Virus record (IMG/VR): IMGVR_UViG_3300044981_000021
Coordinates: 1 to 64,000 of that record
Direction: 5' to 3' (one strand)
DNA from: a virus
Length of the DNA stretch: 64,000 nucleotides
Position 1 is the stretch's first letter. The number at the start of each line of letters is the position of its first letter. Both the position numbers and the translations under genes were made by a program. The notes under the pieces are model-generated. The model did not search any database, was not told the origin of the DNA, and saw nothing but the letters and a program-made list of their open reading frames with translations. This document shows, piece by piece, positions 2,809 to 60,043 of the stretch.

Positions 2809-3453
2809 TCAGTGGCGATAGGATTTTACATTCAAATGCCAGTGTTTGGCTCGCACGTCTGATAGGTGGACATCCCCGAACGTGTCCAGTAATTGCTGCC
2901 AAGAAATGGCGTTACATTTTAGCAGCCTAACCAACACGGTACGCCAGCCATATTGAATCTTGGTCGGCAAATCGGCGGTATCGGTGGAGATTATACTGAA
3001 CTCGGGAATGTGTCCCTTGCGGAAGCTAGCATTAGTCCATTCCTTAACTCCGTTGCGCACTAGATAGAATCCGGCACATCCCGACACGGCCTTACTATCC
3101 TCTACGATTAGATCGGGATTAAGTTTCTGAATGCGCCGCACTAGTTCAGATGAATGCATTAGCTTGCCCATCTGTTTCTCTGCATTCTTGAATGATTCCT
3201 GGTCCTCGTATCTTTGGCCATCAATCATCTTGTCGGTGTCCTCCCAGAGTTTAAGTAGTTCTTCTCTGTCTCCCGCAGGCAATAAATTCTCGCGGTGGAG
3301 CGGCTCAACGTAGGATGCCTTCATCCACGCATAGCAATCGACCGTATAGCGTTCTTTTTGCGAAGGAATTGGGGTATAGGTAGTTGCTTCGACAATCTTA
3401 CTCGCCAACGTTTGAACCGTCCAAAATCTTAGGTTTGAATCCATTGCGCCCAA
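2809..3453 (-). CDS. hypothetical protein (start uncertain)
   Basis: 214-aa ORF in operon context. Confidence 0.55.
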   Translation of the reverse strand: MGAMDSNLRFWTVQTLASKIVEATTYTPIPSQKERYTVDCYAWMKASYVEPLHRENLLPAGDREELLKLWEDTDKMIDGQRYEDQESFKNAEKQMGKLMHSSELVRRIQKLNPDLIVEDSKAVSGCAGFYLVRNGVKEWTNASFRKGHIPEFSIISTDTADLPTKIQYGWRTVLVRLLKCNAISWQQLLDTFGDVHLSDVRAKHWHLNVKSYRH

Positions 3454-48643: not shown

Positions 48644-49203
48644 GCGACTCTCCTTTGTTTTCTTTCAAGTTGTTCCCACGCATTCAGGTAATTGATATAG
48701 TCGTGGCGCTTGGAATATGCCCCAGGTTTACGCCTATCCCGTAACGCGATGCACGTAGAGTCTTTCGGTTGCTTGTTCTTGGGGATGATTAAGAATCCTA
48801 CAGGGGTAGACCAAATATAGAAATCTACCGCACTAGCCGGGGATCGCCTGATTGTCCAATAGGTATTCTTACCCAAAACCCGGCGAGAACTTGTAAACAA
48901 CCCGCAGCGAAATCCGTTAATCAAAATTCGGCACTTCGATGGACGGAGATTGCCAAGGGCTACAGCTTCTACCTTGTATCCACGTTCTTGTGCCAAGGTA
49001 ACAAACGGATGCGATGGTGGAATTTTTGATTCCTCAACCCGCCGCATCTTGCACCGTTCGCGACCCGTAAGACCAAAATACTTGAAGTCGAGTTGCCTGA
49101 TTCTCTCCCGCGAGCAGCCCATTATCCTAGCTACTTCGGTTGGCTTCACGCCATCATCGAGTAAACTCTTGATTCGTTCGTGGTCAAATTGTTTGTTGCT
49201 CAC
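48640..49203 (-). CDS. HTH DNA-binding protein with possible nuclease-like C-terminus
   Basis: PTEVARIMGCSRERIRQL. Confidence 0.65.
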   Translation of the reverse strand: MSNKQFDHERIKSLLDDGVKPTEVARIMGCSRERIRQLDFKYFGLTGRERCKMRRVEESKIPPSHPFVTLAQERGYKVEAVALGNLRPSKCRILINGFRCGLFTSSRRVLGKNTYWTIRRSPASAVDFYIWSTPVGFLIIPKNKQPKDSTCIALRDRRKPGAYSKRHDYINYLNAWEQLERKQRRVA

Positions 49204-49377
49204 ATGTCCTCCAGTTTTAACATTCCGTAATTATGGCGAATTATTTCTTGCACTCACACCCACCAAACTTCATCACTAAGCGTTTCTAAACGGTTCTTGT
49301 CTAAACCATAGGTTTTCAATCTACGGTCGGCATGATCGCCAAGTATCCCCGTAGACCAAAGGAAAAACAGGCGCTCC

Positions 49378-49692
49378 CTATAGCGTTGTGAGACGTTTGA
49401 GGAATGCTTTGGCAGTACCATTTAGTATCTCTCCTGTACTGAAACGATACACATTGAATCCTAGAATTGTAGCTTCGCGGTACTTTTCTAGGTCTTTCTC
49501 GTAGCCAGCACCCCTAGTATGCCTTCCGCGAGCGTAGATTCCACCTTCAATCTCGACAGCAACCAACGGCAAGATCAAGTAATCAAATCGCCACTTACGG
49601 GTCGGATGAAACTTGAACTCGGGTACAAAGTTATCAAATCCTAGTTCGCGAAGATGAATTTCTAATAATGTGTGCGCGGGCTGTTTACTCAT
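49378..49692 (-). CDS. Vsr/DUF559-like endonuclease
   Basis: EFKFHPTRKWRFDY...AVEIEGG...GRHTRG...DLEKY. Confidence 0.8.
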   Translation of the reverse strand: MSKQPAHTLLEIHLRELGFDNFVPEFKFHPTRKWRFDYLILPLVAVEIEGGIYARGRHTRGAGYEKDLEKYREATILGFNVYRFSTGEILNGTAKAFLKRLTTL

Positions 49693-49908
49693 GCTTCGAG
49701 CATACTAGCATTTCTTTGCTAATAGCCCAACCTACGCCACCGGGGTCATCTTTAACCTTCCACGCCCCTTCTTCGTTTTGGTAATGGTGGGCATTGGGAA
49801 TGCGAGGATAGGCAATCTCCCGCCACTCCGTCACGATCCGTCTAGCCTTTTCCTTGGACCTGCTCGACTTCTTGCATATCCCGCAGATGAACATCGTAAA
49901 AATCCCCC

Positions 49909-50313
49909 TTATGTAGACATTTCTACGAGTTCTTGTTTCCACTCGGATTGTTGACGGATGCGATCACGGCGGCGGAATTCTGCACGAATCATGGGTATCA
50001 TAATGCGACGGCGAGTAGCGTCATCATCGGCAAGATACAGATAAGCATTTTCGGCCTCGTTGGCACCGATTAAATCTTTGGCGTGGTCGTAATGTGGAAC
50101 CTCTCCATGCTTTAAAATGTCCATGTTTAGAACATTCTTTACTTCGTTTTTCAGGCTACGAGATTTTAGCGCATGATCGGCGGTAGAAATGCCAATAAAA
50201 CAGCAGCAACTAAAATACGCCAATTTGCCGTCTTGGGCATGTACCAAGAGTTGAGCTAGGCGTTCATCAGTATAATGTCTTTGCATGAAATCTCTGATTG
50301 GTTGTTTGTTCAT
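49909..50313 (-). CDS. hypothetical protein
   Basis: Start MNKQP after AAGGA. Confidence 0.6.
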   Translation of the reverse strand: MNKQPIRDFMQRHYTDERLAQLLVHAQDGKLAYFSCCCFIGISTADHALKSRSLKNEVKNVLNMDILKHGEVPHYDHAKDLIGANEAENAYLYLADDDATRRRIMIPMIRAEFRRRDRIRQQSEWKQELVEMST

Positions 50314-50365
50314 TTTCCTTCTCCCTTCGGAAAAATTGGGGCGAGCATTGCACTCGCCCGCAGGC

Positions 50366-50824
50366 TTATGCAACTTCTTGAAATGAATGAGTGGGTATGT
50401 CGGTACTGGTTTCTGTAACGACATTGCGGAACCGCTCCAAAAAGGCGATGCTTTGGTTGAGTTCGCTGATTTGGGATTGAAGGTTCTCAACTTCCGTCTT
50501 TTTGCCGTAAATCATGGTATCGAGCTTGGTGGCAAATTGCGATGGGTTGTTGAGCAGTTCGATGAGCGGGTTGACCTTCGCTTTGTTGTACGGTCCACGA
50601 GAAGTACGTTTAACGTAGGTCCGCGACTTTGCGACGGTTTCTTTGTGGGATACCTTGCCGAGCCTGTATGCCTTAGACCCTGTGCTTGTTCCTGAGACGC
50701 CGTGTTGCAATCGGTGAGTGCCCAATTTGGGACGCTTGTCGAAAGTCGTGCGCTTCCCGTCTGCGGCACATTCAGGACATGGAAACGGCGGTCCCTGAAT
50801 TTCGTTGGTTGAAATGTGATTCAT
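50366..50824 (-). CDS. C2H2 Zn-finger/coiled-coil protein
   Basis: CPEC...HRLQH; AGGAG RBS. Confidence 0.6.
   Translation of the reverse strand: MNHISTNEIQGPPFPCPECAADGKRTTFDKRPKLGTHRLQHGVSGTSTGSKAYRLGKVSHKETVAKSRTYVKRTSRGPYNKAKVNPLIELLNNPSQFATKLDTMIYGKKTEVENLQSQISELNQSIAFLERFRNVVTETSTDIPTHSFQEVA
50605..50617. repeat. 13-bp palindrome TACGTTTAACGTA
   Basis: Family member. Confidence 0.8.
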
Positions 50825-50871
50825 TGATTTTCTCTCTCCTGTGCAAGTTGCACATTAACTCAGATGAAGAG

Positions 50872-50900
50872 AGATTAAACAGCGATTCATTATTTGTCAA
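50872..50900 (-). promoter_or_regulatory. sigma70-type promoter TTGACA-17-TAATCT
   Basis: Consensus match. Confidence 0.55.
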
Positions 50901-50906
50901 GAGATT

Positions 50907-50993
50907 TGGTCCTGGCAGCAGGAGTTCAACCCGCACGCCCATTACGAGCACTGCATCCTAAGTGCAGCGTGTCTAGCATTCCACCATGCCGGG
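50907..50993 (-). tRNA. tRNA-Leu(TAG)
   Basis: Cloverleaf, loop CTTAGGA, long variable arm, CCA. Confidence 0.85.
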
Positions 50994-50995
50994 AC

Positions 50996-51079
50996 TGGTG
51001 CCCATGGAGCGATTTGCACGCTCACGCCTTGCGGCAGCGGGTCTTAAATCCGCCGTGTATCCTATTCCACCACATGGGC
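50996..51079 (-). tRNA. tRNA-Leu(TAA)
   Basis: Loop TTTAAGA, long arm, CCA. Confidence 0.85.
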
Positions 51080-51085
51080 AAAATC

Positions 51086-51174
51086 TGGTGCATTGGGAGA
51101 GATTTCAACTCTCATTACCCGTAGGGTAGATCGTTTTACAGACGATTGCGACCAAGCGTATTCGCCTCCAATGC
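51086..51174 (-). tRNA. tRNA-Tyr(GTA)
   Basis: Loop CTGTAAA, long arm, CCA. Confidence 0.88.
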
Positions 51175-51175
51175 A

Positions 51176-51261
51176 TGGAGGAAGGTAGAGGAGTTTAACC
51201 CCCATCCCCGTAGGGAGCGACTGGGTTCAGGCCAGTTTGACACACGGTGTCCGTACCTTCC
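51176..51261 (-). tRNA. tRNA-Ser(TGA), C33
   Basis: Loop CCTGAAC, long arm, CCA. Confidence 0.8.
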
Positions 51262-51262
51262 A

Positions 51263-51350
51263 TGGCGGAGAATATGCGAGTCGAACGCATTCGCCCCTTG
51301 CGGGTGCTCTTGTTTAGCAGACAAGCCCCTTGCCGTCCGGGTCATTCTCC
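51263..51350 (-). tRNA. tRNA-Ser(GCT)
   Basis: Loop CTGCTAA, long arm, CCA. Confidence 0.88.
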
Positions 51351-51752
51351 GATAATAAATTCTTTATATTTATTGCCTACAACAATCATCCATTTGTTGC
51401 CCTTTAATTTACCGTAGGGAATTTCATAACAGTCGCCATCGTTGGTGACCACAAACAACACGTCCGCCGCGTTTACGTTAAACGTGGCATATCTAGCCTT
51501 ACCGTCGGCCCGCATTGATGTTGAGCACAAACGAACAACCCACTTAATTCCACGCTTGCCAATTTTCTTTTGGCAGGTAACTCGTACTTGTATTCGAGAA
51601 AATTTTCCATGCGCAAAAACCACAAGATCGAACGGCTGACTATCGGTCAACGGTATGCATACGGTATGGCCTAGCGATGTATAGTGGGCGATGGCCACAC
51701 CTATACCGTGGTCGCCTTTTTGTTTCGAGCCTCGATGTTCATTTGGCTTCAT
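51342..51752 (-). CDS. PD-(D/E)XK endonuclease (group I intron-associated type)
   Basis: KGDHGI...IPLTDSQPFDLVV...IQVR...YEIP. Confidence 0.8.
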   Translation of the reverse strand: MKPNEHRGSKQKGDHGIGVAIAHYTSLGHTVCIPLTDSQPFDLVVFAHGKFSRIQVRVTCQKKIGKRGIKWVVRLCSTSMRADGKARYATFNVNAADVLFVVTNDGDCYEIPYGKLKGNKWMIVVGNKYKEFIIGE

Positions 51753-51775
51753 ATCGTTAATCTAACATCTAATCT

Positions 51776-51863
51776 TGGTCCGGCCTCTCGGACTCGAACC
51801 GAGAATGCTTTTTAGGGCGGATGATCTTGAGCCATCTGCGGCTTCCAGTTTCGCCAAGGCCGG
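51776..51863 (-). tRNA. tRNA-Leu(CAA)
   Basis: Loop CTCAAGA, long arm, CCA. Confidence 0.88.
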
Positions 51864-51871
51864 ATAAATTG

Positions 51872-51943
51872 TTATAGGGATAAACTATACGACAGCCATG
51901 AACGGCTGAGGTTCGAGAGTCGCAATGAGCGTAGAAGAGTCAT
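51872..51943 (-). CDS. leader peptide 3 MTLLRSLRLSNLSRSWLSYSLSL (Leu/Ser/Tyr codon sensor); may be the tail of ORF 51872..52078
   Basis: All 6 Leu codons, 5 of 6 Ser codons and TAT; stop lies 8 nt upstream of the Leu/Ser/Tyr tRNA block. Confidence 0.7.
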   Translation of the reverse strand: MTLLRSLRLSNLSRSWLSYSLSL

Positions 51944-52207
51944 TGGGGTTACTATGACCGCGCCGATTGCTGTCATGTGAATCAGCGCAGACCGTGCATC
52001 ATTGGCGATTGACCTATCCTCGCGAAAGCCATCTGAGACTTGAATTCCCGTTTCGCTTAACTCAATGTGACAGCCCATTATAGAGTTAATGTCGGCACCC
52101 TTTACTCTCAGCCGCCTCGGGTGCGAAATGTCCGGTGAAGCAATCGTTCGGTCGTACAGGTCTTTCTATTGGGTGGAATGTCTATCGCGACGTTCCGCGT
52201 TTAAAAT

Positions 52208-52282
52208 TGGGAGCAGGTACCGGATTTGCACCGGGTCTAAGCGTTATGAGCGCTTCGTATTGTCCTGCGCTACTAACCTGCT
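52208..52282 (-). tRNA. tRNA-CAT (Met; initiator/elongator/Ile2 identity unresolved)
   Basis: Loop CTCATAA, CCA. Confidence 0.75.
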
Positions 52283-52288
52283 TCGATG

Positions 52289-52318
52289 ATTAAAGCATGA
52301 GCGCGGGACGCGAGTCAA
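52289..52318 (-). promoter_or_regulatory. promoter for tRNA block 3 (TTGACT-18-TTTAAT, extended -10)
   Basis: Consensus match directly upstream of tRNA-CAT. Confidence 0.55.
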
Positions 52319-52321
52319 GTT

Positions 52322-52885
52322 TTATTCCGTGTCGAACTCAACCATTTCTTCGCCCTTGAATTTTACTTGTTGAAGAATTTCTAGTGGAATCAATCCATTC
52401 CTATATGCGACGATTACGCGATATTCTTCGAGTTTCAACTGACCCTTGAGTTTGTTGCACTCTAGGCAACAAGGAACTTTGAGTTTTCCGCCAAGACTTC
52501 GGGGCGTAACGTGGTCCTTGGTCCTAATAGCGTCCTTGGTGCAGTCTGTCATGTCCCGTCCGCAGTAAAAGCAACTGCTGTAATACTGCCGTGGCGTGAT
52601 ATTCGGGAAAAGCTTAATTCCAGGAATTTTGGGGGCCGATAACTGTATCGACTTAGGTTTTTTATCAGGAGCTAGGCGAATAAGGTGTTTTTCGCCAACG
52701 GTATGCGGAAGTACACAGGTTCCGTTCGGAGCAACACATTCTACTGGTTCTACCGAAATACCGCCACGGGGAACATTTCCAAAATGATATTGGAAGCGTT
52801 GATCGGCTTCTGTGATATCTTCGGCATCACAGGCAAGAATAATCTTGCCCCCGCTATAGCGGTCGCGATAGATGTAGTGCTTCAT
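52322..52885 (-). CDS. HNH endonuclease
   Basis: CFYCG...TKDHVTPRSLGG...CCLECNKLKG. Confidence 0.85.
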   Translation of the reverse strand: MKHYIYRDRYSGGKIILACDAEDITEADQRFQYHFGNVPRGGISVEPVECVAPNGTCVLPHTVGEKHLIRLAPDKKPKSIQLSAPKIPGIKLFPNITPRQYYSSCFYCGRDMTDCTKDAIRTKDHVTPRSLGGKLKVPCCLECNKLKGQLKLEEYRVIVAYRNGLIPLEILQQVKFKGEEMVEFDTE

Positions 52886-53057
52886 GGTTGGGCTAGGTTA
52901 ATTTATGGTCAGCGGCAAGTCAAGTTTCTCGCTTTAACATTTTAGTTATAACGCCATCGTTATTTTTACAACCTGAGCTATTTTGCTCAGTATTGGCTCC
53001 CCAAACTTTATAGCCTTGTCACAGATCGTGACATTCCAACCAAGAGAGGAAAACACA

Positions 53058-53327
53058 ATGAACGTGCAAACACTGGCTGAAATCATCGAAAACCTGAGAG
53101 CGCAAGGCAAAGCATTCAACGAAGCCGCCGATACGCTTCAGGACAACAGGGGAAACCAGCAGAACGGAAATGGCCGCGCTAACGGCTTTTTAAGGCTGCC
53201 TCCACACGGAAACGCTGGGCGGCACATGAGCGCGGAGACTCGCAAGAAAATGTCGGCATCGCAGAAGGCGCGACATGCTTCCAAGCATATCCCTGCGATA
53301 GTGTCGGTTGATGATATGGTTGCCTAG
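53058..53327 (+). CDS. small protein with NUMOD3-like DNA-binding motif
   Basis: GRHMSAETRKKMSASQKAR; GAGG RBS. Confidence 0.6.
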   Translation: MNVQTLAEIIENLRAQGKAFNEAADTLQDNRGNQQNGNGRANGFLRLPPHGNAGRHMSAETRKKMSASQKARHASKHIPAIVSVDDMVA

Positions 53328-53477
53328 GCAACTAATTCATCTTCGGGTTCTGGCGTAGGTATGTATTCATCGTATCCGCCCCAGAACCCGTCGTCCTTTG
53401 CGACAGGGGGTGCGTAGGACCACAGGATGATCCACGCTAGGATTAGGGCAACGGTGATTAGGTAGGCAAGCATAAAA

Positions 53478-53552
53478 TGGTCGGGGTAGCTGATTCTGCC
53501 ACAGCAACCCCTCGGTCCCAGGCCGAGTGCTCTGCTTTTGAGCTATACCCCG
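53478..53552 (-). tRNA. tRNA-Pro(TGG), C33, atypical T arm
   Basis: Loop CCTGGGA, CCA. Confidence 0.8.
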
Positions 53553-53557
53553 AAATT

Positions 53558-53633
53558 TGGTGGGACGGGCCAGAATCGGACTGGCTACCACATGGGCTTC
53601 AGCCATGCACTCTACCGGCGAGTTCCACGTCCC
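53558..53633 (-). tRNA. tRNA-Phe(GAA)
   Basis: Loop CTGAAGC, CCA. Confidence 0.8.
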
Positions 53634-53687
53634 AAAATATTTTAGTGCGCTTGATAAAGTTTACGCAACCACGTCATAATAACACTT

Positions 53688-54227
53688 ATGAAGATAGCCA
53701 TCCATCATGGTAAACGCCGCAAACTTTATGAAACAAATTGCCAACACTGCAAGATATCGTTTTATACGCCAAAACATAAACTAGACAAACAGTTGTCAAA
53801 GTATTGCTCCTTGCCGTGTTTCCACGCGGCCTCACGAACGGCAACAATAAAACCGTGCGCCATATGCGAAAAACAAATCACGAGAACTCTAACGGCCTTG
53901 TCGCGATGCAAAAGTGGCCTATTTTTCTGCTCACGTAAATGTAAATCCATAGGCCAAAGATTTGAAAATACAACCATGGCCGCCTGCCATCCTGCGCATT
54001 ACAAGGATGGTTCTTCGGCCTACGGTAGAATTGCGATTCGCCACCACGGTAATCACTGCAATCGTTGTGGCTACAAAGAACATATTGAAATACTCCGCAC
54101 TCACCATAAAGACAGAAATAGCGAAAACAACTTGCCGGATAACCTTGAGCGCTTATGCCCAAATTGTCACGAAACTGAACATTTTTTAGCGGGCGATGGT
54201 GTTTATACTGGACACAAACGCCACTAG
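53688..54227 (+). CDS. HNH endonuclease with Zn-finger repeats, inverted within tRNA array
   Basis: CxxC/YCS/FCS repeats; HHKDRN..NN...NLERLCPNCH. Confidence 0.85.
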   Translation: MKIAIHHGKRRKLYETNCQHCKISFYTPKHKLDKQLSKYCSLPCFHAASRTATIKPCAICEKQITRTLTALSRCKSGLFFCSRKCKSIGQRFENTTMAACHPAHYKDGSSAYGRIAIRHHGNHCNRCGYKEHIEILRTHHKDRNSENNLPDNLERLCPNCHETEHFLAGDGVYTGHKRH

Positions 54228-54243
54228 CTCACTGCTCAAAATT

Positions 54244-54318
54244 TGGTGGAGGCGCGGAGAGTCGAACTCCGGATACTTGGTTGCAGGCCAAGTGTGTTCC
54301 CGCTAGCACTACGCCCCC
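54244..54318 (-). tRNA. tRNA-Ala(TGC), C33
   Basis: Loop CCTGCAA, G3.U70 pair, CCA. Confidence 0.88.
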
Positions 54319-54320
54319 AT

Positions 54321-54396
54321 TGGGGTATACGAGGAGGGTCGAACTCCCTAAAGACTGTTCCACAGACAGTCGCCGCACCGTTTGGCTTCGCATACC
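54321..54396 (-). tRNA. tRNA-His(GTG)
   Basis: Loop CTGTGGA, G-1:C73, CCA. Confidence 0.88.
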
Positions 54397-54402
54397 ATAA
54401 CT

Positions 54403-54477
54403 TGGAGCTGAACGTCAGGCTTCAACTGACATCTCCGAATTCACAAGATTCGTGTTCTGGTTTTGAACTAGTTCAGC
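54403..54477 (-). tRNA. tRNA-Thr(TGT), G37
   Basis: Loop CTTGTGA, CCA. Confidence 0.8.
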
Positions 54478-55173
54478 AATTTCTCTAAATTCTCTTGTCC
54501 GTCTTTTCTTTCGCCTAGAAGCACTTGCTTGTTTATTTCGTGATCGAAACGTGGGCGTCAAGGCGTGGCAATTAGGGCATAGCAATTTCAGGTTTTCGTC
54601 CTTATTGTTGTCGGCGTCTCCGTTGATATGTTCTATTTCTAGGGGTATTGGTTTTTGCAGCCACTCGGTCAAGCCGCAACTTTCGCACCGATACCCACGA
54701 GTTCTAAATAAATATCCACGTAATGCATGACTAGTCCTAGCCGTTTCGGGAGAAGTGGTTAGACAATAAATCCGCATTCCGTAACACGAATTACAGAATT
54801 TCCTATGCGTCGAGCACGGCGTTCCACAATGTTCACACTGTCCGGACGTGAGTGCTCGCTTGCGGCGATGTTTTAAGTAACACGCCCGACTACACGACCG
54901 CTGCTTTCGCTTCTCGTATGACATCTTTTCGCCACAATAAATACAACGCTTATTAGCAGCTTTTTCTCTAGCCGCCAAGGAAATCCCAACTCTAAATGCA
55001 GTCAATTTGTCTTTGGCTGCCAACCATCCGATGCGCCCAACATCTTCCCTCGACATTATCGGCTGTTCCCGTGGATCGTTTGTGTATATTCTTCGTGTTG
55101 TTTTTAAGGTGCGATCCCGATTCTTGTAATACCACCTGCGACGAGCCGCACGCCTTTTATCTTGGTTGCGCAT
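54415..55173 (-). CDS. HNH endonuclease (3' end overlaps tRNA-Thr)
   Basis: CESCG..EW...PLEIEHINGDADNN..ENLKLLCPNCHALT. Confidence 0.85.
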   Translation of the reverse strand: MRNQDKRRAARRRWYYKNRDRTLKTTRRIYTNDPREQPIMSREDVGRIGWLAAKDKLTAFRVGISLAAREKAANKRCIYCGEKMSYEKRKQRSCSRACYLKHRRKRALTSGQCEHCGTPCSTHRKFCNSCYGMRIYCLTTSPETARTSHALRGYLFRTRGYRCESCGLTEWLQKPIPLEIEHINGDADNNKDENLKLLCPNCHALTPTFRSRNKQASASRRKKRRTREFREIAELVQNQNTNLVNSEMSVEA

Positions 55174-55181
55174 ATAAATGT

Positions 55182-55255
55182 TGGAGCCAAGAATACGAAT
55201 CGGACGTATGCTTCGGTCGTACCAGGACCGCGTACTGCCACTATACGATCAAGGC
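55182..55255 (-). tRNA. tRNA-Thr(GGT)
   Basis: Loop CTGGTAC, CCA; two acceptor-stem mismatches. Confidence 0.78.
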
Positions 55256-55257
55256 TC

Positions 55258-55332
55258 TGGAGCCGAGACGGCGAATCGAGCGCCGATAACGAGTTTACGA
55301 ATCTCGCATTCTTCCACTTGAATTATCCCGGC
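55258..55332 (-). tRNA. tRNA-Thr(CGT)
   Basis: Loop TTCGTAA, CCA. Confidence 0.82.
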
Positions 55333-55338
55333 CAAACT

Positions 55339-55413
55339 TGGACTGCCGTGAGCGAATCGGACGCTCGTATAAGGTTTTGCAGACCTCAGCCTAAACCACT
55401 CGGCCAACGGCAG
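55339..55413 (-). tRNA. tRNA-Cys(GCA)
   Basis: Loop CTGCAAA, U73, CCA. Confidence 0.88.
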
Positions 55414-55419
55414 TAAAAT

Positions 55420-55520
55420 CTAGGTGTACGGTCCAAGAATCGCCGCGTTCCCGAATCGAACGGACCAACGCCACTGCTGCCTTGCAAGCGACCAGCGCCT
55501 TGTTGCGCACATACACCTAG
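55420..55520 (-). ncRNA. candidate tRNA-like ncRNA (Y RNA/YrlA-like?)
   Basis: 9-bp terminal stem CTAGGTGTA/TACACCTAG, internal T-loop CCG-TTCGATT-CGG, no CCA or anticodon arm. Confidence 0.45.
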
Positions 55521-55524
55521 AACT

Positions 55525-55598
55525 TGGAGCGGGATGCCGTAATCGAAACGGCGTCTGGAGTTTGGAAGACTCCGGCCTTGCCACTAGACGAATCCCGC
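55525..55598 (-). tRNA. tRNA-Gly(TCC)
   Basis: Loop CTTCCAA, U73, CCA. Confidence 0.9.
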
Positions 55599-55844
55599 TT
55601 ACTCAACGCATACACCGTTCATGTTTGTGGCGGTGCATTCTAAACAAAATTCTACCGCATGTTTAACGCATGGATACTGCTTCCAGCCATGCCTAGCCAT
55701 GTAATGATCCCAATGGCTAGCGACCCAATAGCGGGGTCGCGAACTGGCACCAGCGCCGTGAGTCGGACACGGTACATCTGTTTTGGAGACAGATCGAGCA
55801 CCCTTTTCGTCTTCGCTGGCAAAAATCTTCTTGAACAACTTCAT
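55599..55844 (-). CDS. small hypothetical protein in tRNA array
   Basis: AAGGA RBS; fills the gap between tRNAs. Confidence 0.45.
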   Translation of the reverse strand: MKLFKKIFASEDEKGARSVSKTDVPCPTHGAGASSRPRYWVASHWDHYMARHGWKQYPCVKHAVEFCLECTATNMNGVCVE

Positions 55845-55867
55845 TAAACGAACTTCCTTTCGTAATC

Positions 55868-55946
55868 TGGCGGTCGCAGCGGAATTTGAATCCGCGATCT
55901 GTTCCGTGACAGGGAACTGGGGACGGCCTGACTCCCCTATGCGACC
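55868..55946 (-). tRNA. tRNA-Asp(GTC)
   Basis: Loop CTGTCAC, G73, CCA. Confidence 0.88.
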
Positions 55947-56133
55947 GAATCTTTACAATGCGTACAGATGCATCCCCTGCCATGCAATTTAGAGATGCAC
56001 TTACTGCACCAAAGTTGCGCCCAACCACCACAAAGTTTCTCGCCAATCACGTGCTCCTTTGCGTCCATGACGGTCATAACTGCCCCGCTGCACCTGTGGC
56101 AAAACCCGATATGTTTCACGTGCGACATAAAAA

Positions 56134-56207
56134 TGGCCCCGAGTAGTTGAATCGAACAACTGTTGGCTGATCCAGAGTCAGCAGTCTTGCCACTAAACGA
56201 ACTCGGA
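56134..56207 (-). tRNA. tRNA-Gln(CTG)
   Basis: Loop CTCTGGA, CCA. Confidence 0.88.
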
Positions 56208-56212
56208 AATCT

Positions 56213-56246
56213 TGGAGCCGGGAGTATTTTAATGAGCTATCCCGGC
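56213..56246 (-). pseudogene. 34-nt tRNA remnant/minihelix GCCGGGA-TAGCTCATTAAAATAC-TCCCGGC-T-CCA
   Basis: Perfect 7-bp acceptor stem, TAGCTCA D-arm start and CCA; anticodon and T arms absent. Confidence 0.7.
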
Positions 56247-56308
56247 GCGCTCACTCGCGGAGCGTTGTCTGAAAAGGCGATCAACCCTCCAGTCGCAACG
56301 ACGCAAAA

Positions 56309-56382
56309 TGGAAGGGAGTCTGAGAATCGGACTCAGGTCTGATGATCCAAAGTCATCGGCATTGCCATTATGCGAACTCCCT
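56309..56382 (-). tRNA. tRNA-Gln(TTG)
   Basis: Loop CTTTGGA, CCA. Confidence 0.88.
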
Positions 56383-56718
56383 AACTCTTCAACGGAATTG
56401 CGCGTACGCATCTCGCGCAAATCACAAAACTTGAATCTACATCTTTTTCTAGTTTGCGCCGCGCCTCGCGACATTCTTCCACTAGGGCACGATGGTCTGA
56501 TAGCCCCATGCGGCAGTAATCTATCGTCCCGGGCATTACAATCGCGCCTAGAAGTTCATGCTTCATAAATCCTTAACTCAAATGGCCCAAAGCGGTAACT
56601 TGTGTACGGGCTATATCCCCACATAAGCGTCCCGTTCATGCGTAACGTCTTGCCAAAACTCCATGCATCCCAATATGCGTGCCACGTTACGAGTTTGGAG
56701 CCGATAGTCATAAATCCT

Positions 56719-56793
56719 TGGTAGGGCCAACGGAAGTCGAATCCGTATTCACGCCTTGAAAGAGCGTTTACCTAGCCGTTAGTAGATGGCCCC
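56719..56793 (-). tRNA. tRNA-Glu(TTC)
   Basis: Loop CTTTCAA, CCA. Confidence 0.85.
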
Positions 56794-56799
56794 AAAACT

Positions 56800-57144
56800 T
56801 TATACGGTCGCAGAATTGGCTATCACGGCCTCCGCGTATTCCACTAAGGGGCCATAACGCCTGCTATATCTCTTGTTTTTGCTTTGCTCCTTTGGCGTTG
56901 CCCAACGAACATTGCCACGTTCGTAATGACCGTTATTGTTTATCCTTTCTAGTGTTGAACCCTCCGGCCTCGGGCCTAATTCTTACATGAATTCGCCAAA
57001 CGAAACAAATCTAAATTCTATCCCCCTGCCGCCGTAGTACCTGAAATCTTCGCAATTACTATTCATGCAACGGTATCGCGCATGGTCGAAAGATTTATAT
57101 TCCCGCTTAAATTGTTTCGTTAAGCCACTTCCCGAAAATCTCAC
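56800..57144 (-). pseudogene. HNH endonuclease with in-frame TAA (56983-56985)
   Basis: RC...YYGGRGI...FGEFM*ELGPRPEG.TLERINNNGHYERGNVRWAT; AGGAG RBS. Confidence 0.8.
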
Positions 57145-57156
57145 CGTTAATCTCCT

Positions 57157-57193
57157 AAAAAACGTTTAGCCCCGCATTGTTTTTCGGGGCTAA
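57157..57193 (-). terminator. attenuator terminator hairpin after leader 2
   Basis: TTAGCCCCG/CGGGGCTAA stem then ACGTTTTTT. Confidence 0.7.
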
Positions 57194-57199
57194 TTGAAC

Positions 57200-57212
57200 T
57201 ACGTTAAATGTA
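57200..57212. repeat. 13-bp palindrome TACGTTAAATGTA
   Basis: Family member, inside attenuator 2. Confidence 0.85.
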
Positions 57213-57226
57213 CTTTCCCCGATTGT

Positions 57227-57298
57227 TTATGGCGTACCTTCCCCCGCCTGCCATTGGGCTGGTGTCGGGAAGCAATCGGCATGAAATTGAACATTCAT
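57227..57298 (-). CDS. leader peptide 2 MNVQFHADCFPTPAQWQAGEGTP (codon sensor for tRNA block 2)
   Basis: 19 of codons 4-23 specify amino acids of the downstream tRNAs; promoter upstream, terminator downstream. Confidence 0.78.
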   Translation of the reverse strand: MNVQFHADCFPTPAQWQAGEGTP

Positions 57299-57312
57299 TG
57301 GTTAATGAAACA

Positions 57313-57342
57313 AGCCTAAAGCATGTCTGCTTGTTCTGTCAA
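57313..57342 (-). promoter_or_regulatory. promoter for block 2 (TTGACA-18-TAGGCT)
   Basis: Consensus match 14 nt before the leader ATG. Confidence 0.6.
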
Positions 57343-57350
57343 GAAAAAAG

Positions 57351-57427
57351 TGGAAGGCCGGATCGGACTTGAACCGACAACCTCAAGATTCGGAATCTTG
57401 CGCGAGTTCCCTTTTCGCTTCCGGCCC
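57351..57427 (-). tRNA. tRNA-Arg(CCG)
   Basis: Loop TTCCGAA, CCA. Confidence 0.85.
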
Positions 57428-57430
57428 AAA

Positions 57431-57507
57431 TGGTCCTAGCGACAGGATTCAAACCTGCATTCAACTGTTTAGGAAACAGTGCCGTTGTTCAGTTACGGAA
57501 CGCTAGG
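57431..57507 (-). tRNA. tRNA-Arg(CCT)
   Basis: Loop TTCCTAA, CCA. Confidence 0.85.
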
Positions 57508-57512
57508 AAAAT

Positions 57513-57811
57513 CGGCCACAAGTCAAACTGCAAACTTTCGCTAGCTACTTCGTCCTTCTGCGCTGGGCCACTCACGACGGTTAAGCTCTATCTATCCCAG
57601 CCTTCGGTCGGCTCTTTCCTCCGATTAGGGGCGTCATCTTCCAGACTTTTTGCCAACTTCGTTGGTTCCACTAGAACCATTACTGGATTGCATCTAACTT
57701 CGCCAACGCGACACTAGATCGACTTTCGGGAGCGGGTTAGATACCCGTTGCTTGGCCAAGCATCCCCTCGGCTAGTCGTCCAACCGGCAAGCGGCAGTTT
57801 TTTCGTGGCCG
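57513..57811 (-). ncRNA. candidate ~300-nt structured ncRNA in tRNA array
   Basis: Closing stems CGGCCAC/GTGGCCG and AAACTGC/GCAGTTT; many internal hairpins; no sense-strand ORF in the track. Confidence 0.6.
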
Positions 57812-57833
57812 AAATAAATATAACACGGGAAAA

Positions 57834-57911
57834 TGGTGCAGGATAGTGGACTCGAACCACTCGCCTCGGCTTTCGTAGAACCGCGCTCTAGTCCTGATGA
57901 GCTAATCCTGC
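57834..57911 (-). tRNA. tRNA-Arg(ACG)
   Basis: Loop CTACGAA, CCA. Confidence 0.9.
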
Positions 57912-57916
57912 AAACT

Positions 57917-57991
57917 TGGGAGCGCATAACCGGGTCGAACGGTTGTCTCTTAGGTAGAAGCCAAGGCTCTGTCCTGTTGAGCTAATGCGCC
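57917..57991 (-). tRNA. tRNA-Arg(TCT)
   Basis: Loop CTTCTAC, CCA. Confidence 0.82.
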
Positions 57992-57998
57992 ACAATTC

Positions 57999-58074
57999 TG
58001 GTGGAAGTGAGACGATTCAAACGTCCATCGGCCTACTTAAAAGGTAGGGGTCTTAATCGTTAGACGACACTTCC
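57999..58074 (-). tRNA. tRNA-Lys(TTT)
   Basis: Loop CTTTTAA, CCA. Confidence 0.88.
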
Positions 58075-58079
58075 AAAAC

Positions 58080-58154
58080 TGGTGGAGCGCAATGGACTCG
58101 AACCATTGTTTCCCGAGTAAGGGTCGGGTTGCCTAGCCACTGACGGAGCGCTCC
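58080..58154 (-). tRNA. tRNA-Lys(CTT), C33
   Basis: Loop CCCTTAC, CCA. Confidence 0.8.
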
Positions 58155-58160
58155 TAAAAA

Positions 58161-58238
58161 TGGTGCGGAATATTGGAATTGAACCAATGGCCTCGTCCTT
58201 ATCAGAGACGCGCTCTAAGCCAACTGAGCTAATTCCGC
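58161..58238 (-). tRNA. tRNA-Ile(GAT)
   Basis: Loop CTGATAA, CCA. Confidence 0.9.
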
Positions 58239-58239
58239 A

Positions 58240-58315
58240 TGGTGCCGGAGCCAAGACTCGAACTTGGGACTTCCTGCTTGTAGGGCAGGCACTCTGGCCG
58301 CTGAGTTAATCCGGC
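58240..58315 (-). tRNA. tRNA-Val(TAC), C33
   Basis: Loop CCTACAA, CCA. Confidence 0.85.
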
Positions 58316-58317
58316 AC

Positions 58318-58392
58318 TGGTTGAGGGCGATGGAATCGAACCATCCCGAAACAGTGTTTATAAGACGCCGCAGCGCTCCAGTGCTGCCCTCA
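58318..58392 (-). tRNA. tRNA-Ile(TAT)
   Basis: Loop CTTATAA, CCA; irregular D and anticodon stems. Confidence 0.7.
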
Positions 58393-58397
58393 AAATC

Positions 58398-58473
58398 TGG
58401 TACGAGTGGGAGGAATCGAACCTTCCGACACCGTGGTTATGGGCCACGTAATCTACCACTGATCTACACTCGC
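58398..58473 (-). tRNA. tRNA-CAT (Met or Ile2), C33
   Basis: Loop CCCATAA, CCA. Confidence 0.8.
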
Positions 58474-58698
58474 TCAACTTAAACCGCCTACGCGCCATTT
58501 ATCGTTGATTTGCGCGTATTCCTGCTCAATCTTTCCAACCCGAACCACGGTCCAACGGCGTTCATTCATAAGCGATTCTTCGTGGTCGAAGGTTACGACG
58601 TTACCGCGCTTTAATCTCCACGATGCATCTACCCATGCAGTCGTATGGCGAACACCGCCATTTACTTTACGCTCGAATTGGACTTGAACCATCCTCAT
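58474..58698 (-). CDS. small hypothetical protein in tRNA array
   Basis: Fills the gap between tRNA-Asn and tRNA-CAT. Confidence 0.5.
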   Translation of the reverse strand: MRMVQVQFERKVNGGVRHTTAWVDASWRLKRGNVVTFDHEESLMNERRWTVVRVGKIEQEYAQINDKWRVGGLS

Positions 58699-58705
58699 AA
58701 AAATA

Positions 58706-58793
58706 TGGCTGGCACGAGAGGACTCGAACCTCCAGAGGGTTGCCCCACTTCATTAACAGTGAAGCCCGCTACCAAATTACGGTTTACATGCCA
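58706..58793 (-). tRNA. tRNA-Asn(GTT) with long variable arm
   Basis: Loop CTGTTAA, G73, variable arm TGGGGCAACCCTCT, CCA. Confidence 0.82.
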
Positions 58794-58804
58794 ACGTTGT
58801 CTCC

Positions 58805-58844
58805 AAAACCAAATGGGCCTTCAGGTTAAGTTTTGAAGGCCCAT
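58805..58844 (-). terminator. terminator hairpin between leader 1 and tRNA block 1
   Basis: 11-bp stem ATGGGCCTTCA/TGAAGGCCCAT followed by TTGGTTTT. Confidence 0.75.
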
Positions 58845-58875
58845 CAGGAAAGGAGGATGCAATGAAAATGAACTC

Positions 58876-58947
58876 TTATCCCGAACGCGCCCGCACGACT
58901 CGCATTCTAATGCGATTTCGCTTTTCGCGTTTAGGTATCAAGCTCAT
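58876..58947 (-). CDS. leader peptide 1 MSLIPKREKRNRIRMRVVRARSG (codon sensor for tRNA block 1)
   Basis: 14 of codons 6-21 are K/R/N/I/M/V; ATG 6 nt after the -10 box (leaderless); terminator follows. Confidence 0.78.
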   Translation of the reverse strand: MSLIPKREKRNRIRMRVVRARSG

Positions 58948-58953
58948 TGGTCT

Positions 58954-58982
58954 AATCTACATCAGCGATTTGGGAAAAGCAA
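58954..58982 (-). promoter_or_regulatory. promoter for block 1 (TTGCTT-17-TAGATT)
   Basis: Consensus match; predicted TSS at or next to the leader ATG. Confidence 0.6.
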
Positions 58983-59254
58983 GAAGATTATTGAACACCA
59001 TTCCAAGACTGCAATCCTCGCAATCCAGATTGGATATTACTAAATCCTCCGGTAATGGTTGGCGGCCAATATGGCGAAGTATTTGGATAGCCGAACGGAT
59101 ATGGCTGAATCGTTGGCTGGGTTCTGTAGCGGCCACAAGTAGGACAATAACCACAATTAGGACAGACGCTCCCAAAATGTTGTGCATAATCTGGGTTGAT
59201 TCCTTGGGGTTGATAATTTGCTGATTGAAAATCGTTGTACATGCCGTAATTATA

Positions 59255-60043
59255 CTATTTCCAGGGTGACCCAGAGTGGATAATCTTCAAATCGGTTTGC
59301 GGATCATCGAGAACTTGCAATGGCATCCAAAAGAACCCCGATAAGCCCCATCCCGAACCCCACGAATTTTGAATCAATACGGCGGGAGGGCAACCAACGG
59401 GTCGAAGCGTGGGCGTTTCTCCAACGTCGCATCCAACCATTAAAACTTCGTGCCCTCCCATGACTTCTTCCCCTTGGGCGGGAATGGGCATAATCCCCGT
59501 TTGCGCTAGTTCGTCACTCTCGAAAGATGCATAAACCGTGAATCCAACCTCGATTGGCCATGGAGTTGGGTCGCCAATAACACTTAACGCTGTTTGCGAT
59601 CCCGTTAGGCCATGATAAGCGCCAAGTCTAAATTGTGCGGCATTGGCATCCTGCGAAGTTGTTGGCTTTTCGATATCCCCAGCGATATATGGGTAGACGG
59701 ATAATTCGCAGCACCCACTGACGATCATAGTATTACAGAGCGTTGTACCATCTGCTCCAACGTCGTTTGGAAAGTTGCCTTGGGCGATTAATTCCTTGGC
59801 GTAGGTATATTGCGGAGAGAAAATTGGGGATGCGTTGAGATATTTGCGATGAATTAATTCATTGGCCGATGTCCCGGCATGGCCCGTACACGAACCCTCT
59901 TGGCCTTGGTCTTTTATGGGGCCACACCAAATTCTTAGATCGACCACGGGAGAAGCAATCGTGGCACGAGAAAGCATTCTATGGGCGGGAAGCGGCGCGG
60001 GGATATTGCGTCCGTAGCGCCGCCCAATTGTGCTGATAGCCAT
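59255..60043 (-). CDS. papain-like (C1 family) cysteine peptidase
   Basis: VDLR, DQGQEGSCTGH, GGHEV, IQNSWG..WG..GFF. Confidence 0.9.
   Translation of the reverse strand: MAISTIGRRYGRNIPAPLPAHRMLSRATIASPVVDLRIWCGPIKDQGQEGSCTGHAGTSANELIHRKYLNASPIFSPQYTYAKELIAQGNFPNDVGADGTTLCNTMIVSGCCELSVYPYIAGDIEKPTTSQDANAAQFRLGAYHGLTGSQTALSVIGDPTPWPIEVGFTVYASFESDELAQTGIMPIPAQGEEVMGGHEVLMVGCDVGETPTLRPVGCPPAVLIQNSWGSGWGLSGFFWMPLQVLDDPQTDLKIIHSGSPWK

Follow-up and report, generated by a model that had tools for sequence, protein, structure and literature searches.

A leucine-, serine- and tyrosine-rich leader ORF without a terminator in the tRNA cluster of a soil phage: a candidate gauge of decoding capacity

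In the tRNA cluster of a soil phage, short ORFs that match the tRNA genes behind them in amino acid content stand ahead of three tRNA blocks. Two of these leaders, leader 1 and leader 2, are followed by a canonical terminator. The third, leader 3, is not, and its stop codon almost touches the first tRNA of its block. This raises the question of whether leader 3 is a genuine ORF read by ribosomes and, if so, by what route it could influence the tRNA genes behind it.

The phage record is 100,880 bp long with direct terminal repeats. The window, which is the whole stretch of DNA analysed here, is its first 64 kb. The phage is of soil origin (three soil DNA sequencing runs contain it, and no RNA run is listed among those that do) and its genes include those for the large terminase, the portal and the major head protein. 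All of its tRNA genes are in a minus strand cluster at 50907-58793, interrupted by four free-standing endonuclease genes recognized with Pfam and PHROG. The features around the three leaders are as follows.

51872..51943, minus strand: leader 3, a 23-codon ORF, MTLLRSLRLSNLSRSWLSYSLSL followed by TAA, read from the sequence, with homologs at the same place in the related phages G001 and G003
51864..51871, minus strand: A/T-rich 8-nt spacer CAATTTAT between the stop codon and the tRNA, from the sequence
51776..51863, minus strand: tRNA-Leu(CAA), the first after leader 3 (ARAGORN; no Rfam tRNA match at E<=1)
51342..51752, minus strand: free-standing PD-(D/E)XK endonuclease gene (Pfam PF11645, E 6.7e-14)
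50907..51350, minus strand: the rest of block 3, tRNA-Ser(GCT), Ser(TGA), Tyr(GTA), Leu(TAA) and Leu(TAG) (ARAGORN, Rfam)
52322-52885 (minus), 54415-55173 (minus) and 53688-54227 (plus): three free-standing HNH endonuclease genes, between tRNA genes
57227..57298, minus strand: leader 2, MNVQFHADCFPTPAQWQAGEGTP, with a canonical terminator at 57166-57193
58876..58947, minus strand: leader 1, MSLIPKREKRNRIRMRVVRARSG, with a canonical terminator at 58812-58845

Codon content and placement of the leaders

The codons of leader 3 are ATG ACT CTT CTA CGC TCA TTG CGA CTC TCG AAC CTC AGC CGT TCA TGG CTG TCG TAT AGT TTA TCC CTA and the stop TAA. The original prediction held that all six Leu codons and five Ser codons are sampled, and both the sequence and its translation agree: there are 8 Leu with every codon type present, 7 Ser from five codon types (TCT is absent) and 1 Tyr. 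It was also correct that the stop (51874-51872) is 8 nt before tRNA-Leu(CAA) at 51863-51776 and that the block behind the leader groups the long-variable-arm tRNAs, namely Leu(CAA), Ser(GCT), Ser(TGA), Tyr(GTA), Leu(TAA) and Leu(TAG), all 84-89 nt. These six, three Leu, two Ser and one Tyr, are the complete block 3. The PD-(D/E)XK gene is inserted between tRNA-Leu(CAA) and tRNA-Ser(GCT), the latter of which it overlaps by 9 nt.

The leader 3 region has 22 C and 12 G in 78 nt, a C/G ratio of 1.83 that is at the 96th percentile of the strand, and C outnumbers G in the leader 3 copies of all three phages. A Shine-Dalgarno motif was sought for leader 3 and none was found, while GGAG-type sites precede the other genes of the phage. 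In the relatives there is an A-rich run before the leader 3 AUG.

All three leaders share a format of 23 codons, a length found in 3.4% of small ORFs, with a TAA stop and a CCAATGA start. No motif common to the upstream sequences of the three leaders was identified beyond the CCA. This CCA is ahead of the ATG in 7 of the 9 leaders of the three phages (51940-51946, 57295-57301 and 58944-58950, minus strand, in the window). The triplet is like the 3' end of a tRNA, and 8 nt before the leader 3 AUG of G001 there is a tRNA-like CCA. It had been suggested that leader 3 follows the same sensing logic as leaders 1 and 2 with a different output. The common format and the block-matched content support placing leader 3 in one set with leaders 1 and 2; for the output there are candidates only.

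To assess chance, every ATG ORF of 12-45 codons was taken from the six frames of the whole 100.9-kb genome, giving 1273 ORFs, and each was scored for enrichment in the amino acid sets of the three tRNA blocks. Leader 3, in which 16 of 22 residues are Leu, Ser or Tyr, comes top of the 1273 (binomial p 4e-7). Scored against their own blocks, leader 2 has 19 of 22 (p 1e-4) and leader 1 has 15 of 22 (p 3.5e-4). For each block set, the best ORF genome-wide is the leader directly before that block and on the right strand. The spacers before the blocks contain only 3 (leader 3), 6 and 2 of the 1273 ORFs, making the joint chance of all three genome-wide best ORFs being in their proper spacers ~1.7e-8. 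There are 435 ways of cutting the tRNA order into three runs (hand count), and the chance corrected for these is still <1e-5. Once amino acid content is given, however, the diversity of Leu and Ser codons in leader 3 is marginal (p about 0.035-0.047), and having a cognate codon for each block 3 tRNA is unremarkable (p about 0.5). What goes beyond chance in leader 3 is the enrichment in Leu, Ser and Tyr together with its placement; codon diversity alone does not. Elsewhere in the genome, a single other stretch has 15 of 22 Leu plus Ser (window 3203-3270, plus strand), in a frame antisense to minus strand ORFs.

The soil sequencing runs give some further sightings of the leaders. No variant of leader 3 was present in the contigs from the three runs, in which cover is thin and patchy. 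A 2.6x contig of run X3 has eight differences from the window at 58868-58935, in and just after leader 1. Read by hand, they include changes of Pro5 to Ser and of Arg14 to His as well as a synonymous change in a Ser codon. Part of leader 2 (57233-57283) is matched, with several small insertions, by short contigs of runs X1 and X3 at 44-51x, three times the 15.7x depth of the phage; these are probably from another, more abundant genome.

Conservation in two related phages

Relatives were found through the large terminase, by a protein search (contigs of about 60 to 103 kb) and then an alignment-based scan of IMG/VR. Two complete IMG/VR genomes were identified: G001 (103 kb, terminase 84% identical) and G003 (102 kb, 61%). 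IMG/VR searches with a 152-aa neighbour, the primase/helicase and the PD-(D/E)XK gene gave no relatives, and a metagenome scan with an alignment of the 152-aa neighbour gave no match. L002, found by a peptidase match, was rejected as a relative, since it has only the peptidase gene in common and is without tRNAs. DNA patterns of tRNA-Leu(CAA) had no match in viral or metagenome contigs because this tRNA is only 61-66% identical between the relatives. Against cultured phages, DNA similarity searches gave no match for 51300-52900 and only weak tRNA-level matches for block 3.

The tRNA order of the G001 and G003 clusters is that of the window, and the top-scoring small ORFs in their loci are again three leaders in the same three places. 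The PD-(D/E)XK gene is missing from the corresponding site in G001 (25-nt gap) and in G003 (14-nt gap). The common order also bears on tRNA-Trp(CCA), which ARAGORN calls at a relaxed threshold between tRNA-Asp and tRNA-Gly (55745-55820, minus strand) and for which there is no Rfam match at E<=1. In G003 a solid tRNA-Trp (52 bits) has the same place in the order (L025 6144-6217, plus strand), and each of the three leader 2 copies has one TGG. Trp may therefore not be missing from the array after all.

The leader 3 homolog of G001, MTLSLSLRLSSSLALHSYLSL, ends 5 nt before tRNA-Leu(CAA), with the spacer AATTT. That of G003, MTILRSLRLSNISRSRLSSYLSPCKNLVRR, runs 10 nt into tRNA-Leu(CAA) and ends at TAG (L025 9481-9573, plus strand). 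The G003 sequence has two extra C compared with G001 (CCCCC vs CCC), without which it would end ...YLSL* at 23 codons. The overlap is either real, in which case the ribosome and tRNA folding would be forced to compete, or an assembly error.

Across the three phages, leader 3 has a nucleotide identity of 0.70-0.82, the tRNAs of the block 0.57-0.74 and the spacer upstream 0.52-0.58, which makes leader 3 the element with the highest conservation in its region. Leu, Ser and Tyr make up 16 of 20 residues in G001; in G003 they are 14 of the 29 residues of the called ORF, or 13 when the count stops at sense codon 21. The totals in G001 are exactly those of the window, 8 Leu, 7 Ser and 1 Tyr, despite four Leu/Ser swaps; further differences are an Arg-to-Leu and an Asn-to-Ser change and a switch between Ser codon families, TCG to AGT. 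Eleven codon types are present in all three copies: CTA, CTC, CTG, TTA, TTG, AGC, AGT, TCA, TCC, TCG and TAT. Conservation in relatives was the point on which the codon diversity claim had been staked, and the Leu/Ser/Tyr content and the codon types are indeed kept in both G001 and G003, a comparison of three related genomes that counts lineages and not independent inventions. As the composition has been maintained through Leu/Ser swaps, selection appears to be on codon content and not on the peptide.

Leader 3 is, as had been noted, the in-frame tail of a longer ORF.

51872..52078, minus strand: 68-aa ORF with leader 3 as its tail, from the ORF list; read from 52078 to 51872

This ORF is not conserved. 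In G001 and G003 an unrelated frame without an ATG stands ahead of leader 3, so the conserved start is that at 51943. No Pfam or PHROG match was found for the 68-aa ORF. Its sole match among 1.84 billion representatives, P0009, was rejected; it is a 619-aa tandem-repeat ORF in which nine weak repeats inflate the score.

The transcript, the missing terminator and RNA structure

Upstream of leader 3 there are two further elements.

52289..52318, minus strand: promoter-like TTGACT-N18-TTTAAT, from the sequence, heading the leader 3 unit
52208..52281, minus strand: tRNA with anticodon CAT (Rfam 25.3 bits, below the cut-off; ARAGORN at a relaxed threshold)

The promoter-like sequence has the form TTGAC(A/T)-N18-T(T/C)TAAT in the three phages and is 88-346 nt upstream of leader 3. 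Sequences resembling a tRNA with a CAT loop are between it and leader 3 in G001 and G003, with no Rfam call there. Since a conserved promoter and a tRNA-CAT or tRNA-CAT-like element precede it, leader 3 is, on its sequence context, an ORF inside a tRNA transcript and not the head of one. In G001 a tRNA-type structure stands on either side of it, at distances of only 8 and 5 nt. The predicted transcription start is approximately at the first base of tRNA-CAT, and this tRNA may therefore need no 5' processing. A perfect TATAAT at 52077-52082 (minus strand) overlaps the ATG of the 68-aa ORF and has no good -35 partner.

The tRNA on the other side of leader 3 is fast-evolving, with pairwise identities of 61-66% among the three phages. 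The window copy of tRNA-Leu(CAA) is atypical in that its 16-nt variable region is unpaired. The G003 copy (L025 9564-9637, plus strand) has a short variable loop and measures just 77 nt; the G001 copy (L024 1614-1695, minus strand) has a normal long arm. The contact between leader 3 and this tRNA is 8 nt in the window, 5 nt in G001 and a 10-nt overlap in G003.

The absence of a canonical terminator from leader 3 is confirmed, as no hairpin with a T-run is present anywhere from the start of the ORF to the tRNA. Behind leaders 1 and 2, each of the three phages has a G+C-rich hairpin of 8 to 12 bp with a T-run; behind leader 3 none of them has. The lack of a terminator is conserved and not accidental. 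Two small hairpins are found instead.

51920..51947, minus strand: hairpin H1, in which CCAAUGA, which holds the AUG, pairs with UCAUUG.CG of codons 6-8 (single-sequence fold and RNAalifold consensus)
51893..51908, minus strand: hairpin H2 in codons 12-17, CAGCC/GGCUG with a 6-nt loop (fold, z -3.0)

In H1, 7 of the 8 pairs are identical in the three phages and the 11-nt loop varies. H2 is the hairpin reported earlier within the ORF; it exists as a 5-bp stem with a 6-nt loop, but not with the 7-nt arms then quoted (CAGCCGT/ATGGCTG), which leave a 2-nt loop. There is also a hairpin at the place of H2 in G001 (GCAGC/GCUGC) and in G003 (CAGUCG/CGACUG), with one compensatory pair. A U-rich, UAUUUAU-like stretch follows 5-7 nt after H2. 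This is too far from the stem for H2 to be an intrinsic terminator, although the folds suggest the geometry of a hairpin-stabilised pause. Leader 3 thus has two conserved hairpins, and no conserved alternative pairing could be established from the three sequences.

Two larger structures were considered and rejected. A structured RNA of about 300 nt in the spacer is ruled out, the fold of the 350-nt spacer being no better than shuffles (z -0.14). A helix between leader and tRNA that competes with tRNA folding is not supported, as the acceptor stem forms with a probability of about 1 and the duplexes are no better than shuffles. Rfam has no match for a curated RNA family in 51864-52213, and 49000-60000 gives only tRNA-clan matches at E<=1.

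A possible role for leader 3 and its place among leader systems

The composition, placement and conservation of leader 3 argue for an ORF that is read by ribosomes and in which the Leu, Ser and Tyr codons matter. With moderate confidence, leader 3 may be seen as a real, selected mini-ORF, one of three whose codons are for the most part cognate to the tRNAs behind them, that acts as a ribosome-read gauge of Leu, Ser and Tyr decoding and tunes the output of block 3. Leader 3 would be translated, and the speed of the ribosome would report the decoding of these codons. The output of the block, a class II set of three Leu, two Ser and one Tyr tRNAs, would then be adjusted to this signal. Unlike leaders 1 and 2, leader 3 would not act through an intrinsic terminator and antiterminator. 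The missing Shine-Dalgarno motif and the conserved H1 are difficulties for this, the latter because its enclosure of the AUG should hinder initiation. The more specific proposal, in which the switch is independent of a terminator and a ribosome on the codon inventory governs the adjacent tRNA by blocking its folding or RNase P cleavage or by gating Rho, is possible but falls short of being probable.

Two outputs can be put forward within this reading. While the ribosome is at the end of the leader, or close to it, it might hinder the folding or the RNase P cleavage of the adjacent tRNA; stalling further upstream would relieve this hindrance. A ribosome terminating on leader 3 would extend as far as the first base of the acceptor stem, and the distance from stop to tRNA has been held at 5-9 nt, or at overlap, while tRNA-Leu(CAA) itself diverged to 61-66% identity. 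Against this, there is no predicted competition between leader and tRNA, and just the first of the six tRNAs would be affected. Steric control at the tRNA 5' end is a tentative and rather doubtful candidate. The second output is more doubtful still. Ribosomes covering C-rich, G-poor RNA might keep Rho off the transcript, following the logic of tnaC. What speaks for Rho is composition: across the three phages, no leader but leader 3 is C-rich and G-poor, and every other leader has a terminator. However, its C-richness follows automatically from the Leu and Ser codons, and structured tRNAs are poor Rho substrates. The remaining weight within the overall reading belongs to an output other than these two.

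It is unlikely that leader 3 is instead a conserved RNA element, such as a processing, pausing or RNase E signal, and not a translated ORF. In that case H1, H2 and the A/U-rich tail would act in the spacer between two tRNAs, and the open frame and the Leu/Ser content would be by-products of pyrimidine-rich RNA. The unusual conservation of synonymous positions, with TCATTGCGACT and TTTATCCC identical in the three phages, is consistent with such an element, as are the hiding of the AUG in H1, the compensatory pair in H2 and the missing Shine-Dalgarno motif. However, the frame is open from the same ATG in all three phages, and G001 has multi-base Leu/Ser swaps at four positions yet comes to the same totals of 8 Leu, 7 Ser and 1 Tyr. 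The codon matching is also seen in leaders 1 and 2, whose base composition is quite different, and pyrimidine richness leaves the in-frame Tyr, AGY Ser and UUR Leu codons unexplained.

That leader 3 is a decayed attenuator, having lost its terminator by rearrangement in an endonuclease-rich cluster and being without regulatory output, is quite improbable. Its format is that of leaders 1 and 2, and one of the four free-standing endonuclease genes of the cluster is right behind tRNA-Leu(CAA). But this PD-(D/E)XK insertion is unique to the window and is behind the tRNA, and the terminator-less contact with tRNA-Leu(CAA) is common to phages with 61-84% identical large terminases. A functionless relic should also have drifted, whereas leader 3 is more conserved than the tRNAs. 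A functional small protein unrelated to tRNA supply, be it the 68-aa ORF or the 23-aa peptide, is very improbable. Codon usage in the first 45 codons of the 68-aa ORF is gene-like, at a score that 10% of open non-coding windows reach. However, this stretch is not conserved, and G001 and G003 lack an ATG there. The ORF belongs to no Pfam or PHROG family, its sole database match is the score-inflated tandem-repeat ORF, and the Leu/Ser swaps would wreck an amphipathic peptide. A chance ORF in the spacer is effectively refuted: the non-coding frame at +3203 is equally Leu/Ser-rich and the codon diversity alone is unremarkable, but the placement, the format common to two sister leaders and the conservation in two relatives all stand against it.

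Taking leader 3 as a ribosome-read gauge, it can be compared with known leader systems. In multivalent attenuators, a short ORF is packed with codons of the amino acids served and the speed of the ribosome reports the supply of aminoacyl-tRNA. Enterobacterial examples are leuL, thrL, ilvL/ivbL, hisL and pheL, as well as pheM of the pheST synthetase operon. Leader 3 resembles these in being rich in codons that match the controlled genes (16 of 22), and leaders 1 and 2 resemble them in having the terminator as well. Leader 3 differs in that the controlled genes are tRNA genes, in having no intrinsic terminator or demonstrable antiterminator, and in that its stop touches the first tRNA. Its matching codons are also spread over 16 of 22 positions with many synonymous codons, unlike the run of one codon in multivalent attenuators.

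Rho-dependent leader ORF switches include tnaC of the tna operon and the mgtL/mgtA and corL/corA leaders of Salmonella. As in these, leader 3 is without an intrinsic terminator, and a ribosome by C-rich, G-poor RNA could decide the access of Rho. A structured tRNA comes next, however, and not a long unstructured spacer. T-box riboswitches, which contain no ORF, recognise uncharged tRNA by direct binding and are marked by a specifier loop and a T-box motif. Leader 3 would share with them the sensing of tRNA status for genes of the translation apparatus, and differs in having an ORF; Rfam identified no T-box in the tRNA cluster.

Among cultured phages, the Caulobacter phage phiCbK has an analogue of the codon-matched leaders. 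Its gp083 is 45 aa long, with 32 of 44 residues being Ser, Leu, Ala, Pro or Lys (L004 3541-3678; phiCbK 49540-49677), and together with an annotated rho-independent terminator it precedes a Pro-Pro-Lys-Lys-Leu-Leu-Leu-Ala-Ser-Ser tRNA block. Unlike leader 3, gp083 has a terminator. Annotated terminators are also ahead of two other tRNA blocks in phiCbK. No clear codon-matched leaders were seen in T5, the cyanophage C48C1 and the Streptomyces phage NootNoot, where the tRNAs are interspersed with ordinary small genes. Full-text literature searches gave no account of leader peptides controlling tRNA genes.

The sequence comparisons therefore support the idea that leader 3 may be leader-peptide control applied to tRNA genes, in a form that is terminator-less and contacts the first tRNA, with its output a candidate only. 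Leader 3 is the best conserved part of its region and yet does not have the terminator of its sisters. Either there is a second output route, or the attenuator reading of the class is incomplete. If leader 3 does act in this way, it would be a case of translation-coupled control of tRNA biogenesis, a mechanism that was not found described in the literature searched. The usual view of phage tRNA genes is that of a fixed supplement to the host pool. If the reading is true, this phage would measure decoding capacity and adjust its tRNA supply to it, which bears on the ways in which phages withstand the loss of host tRNAs and anticodon nucleases.
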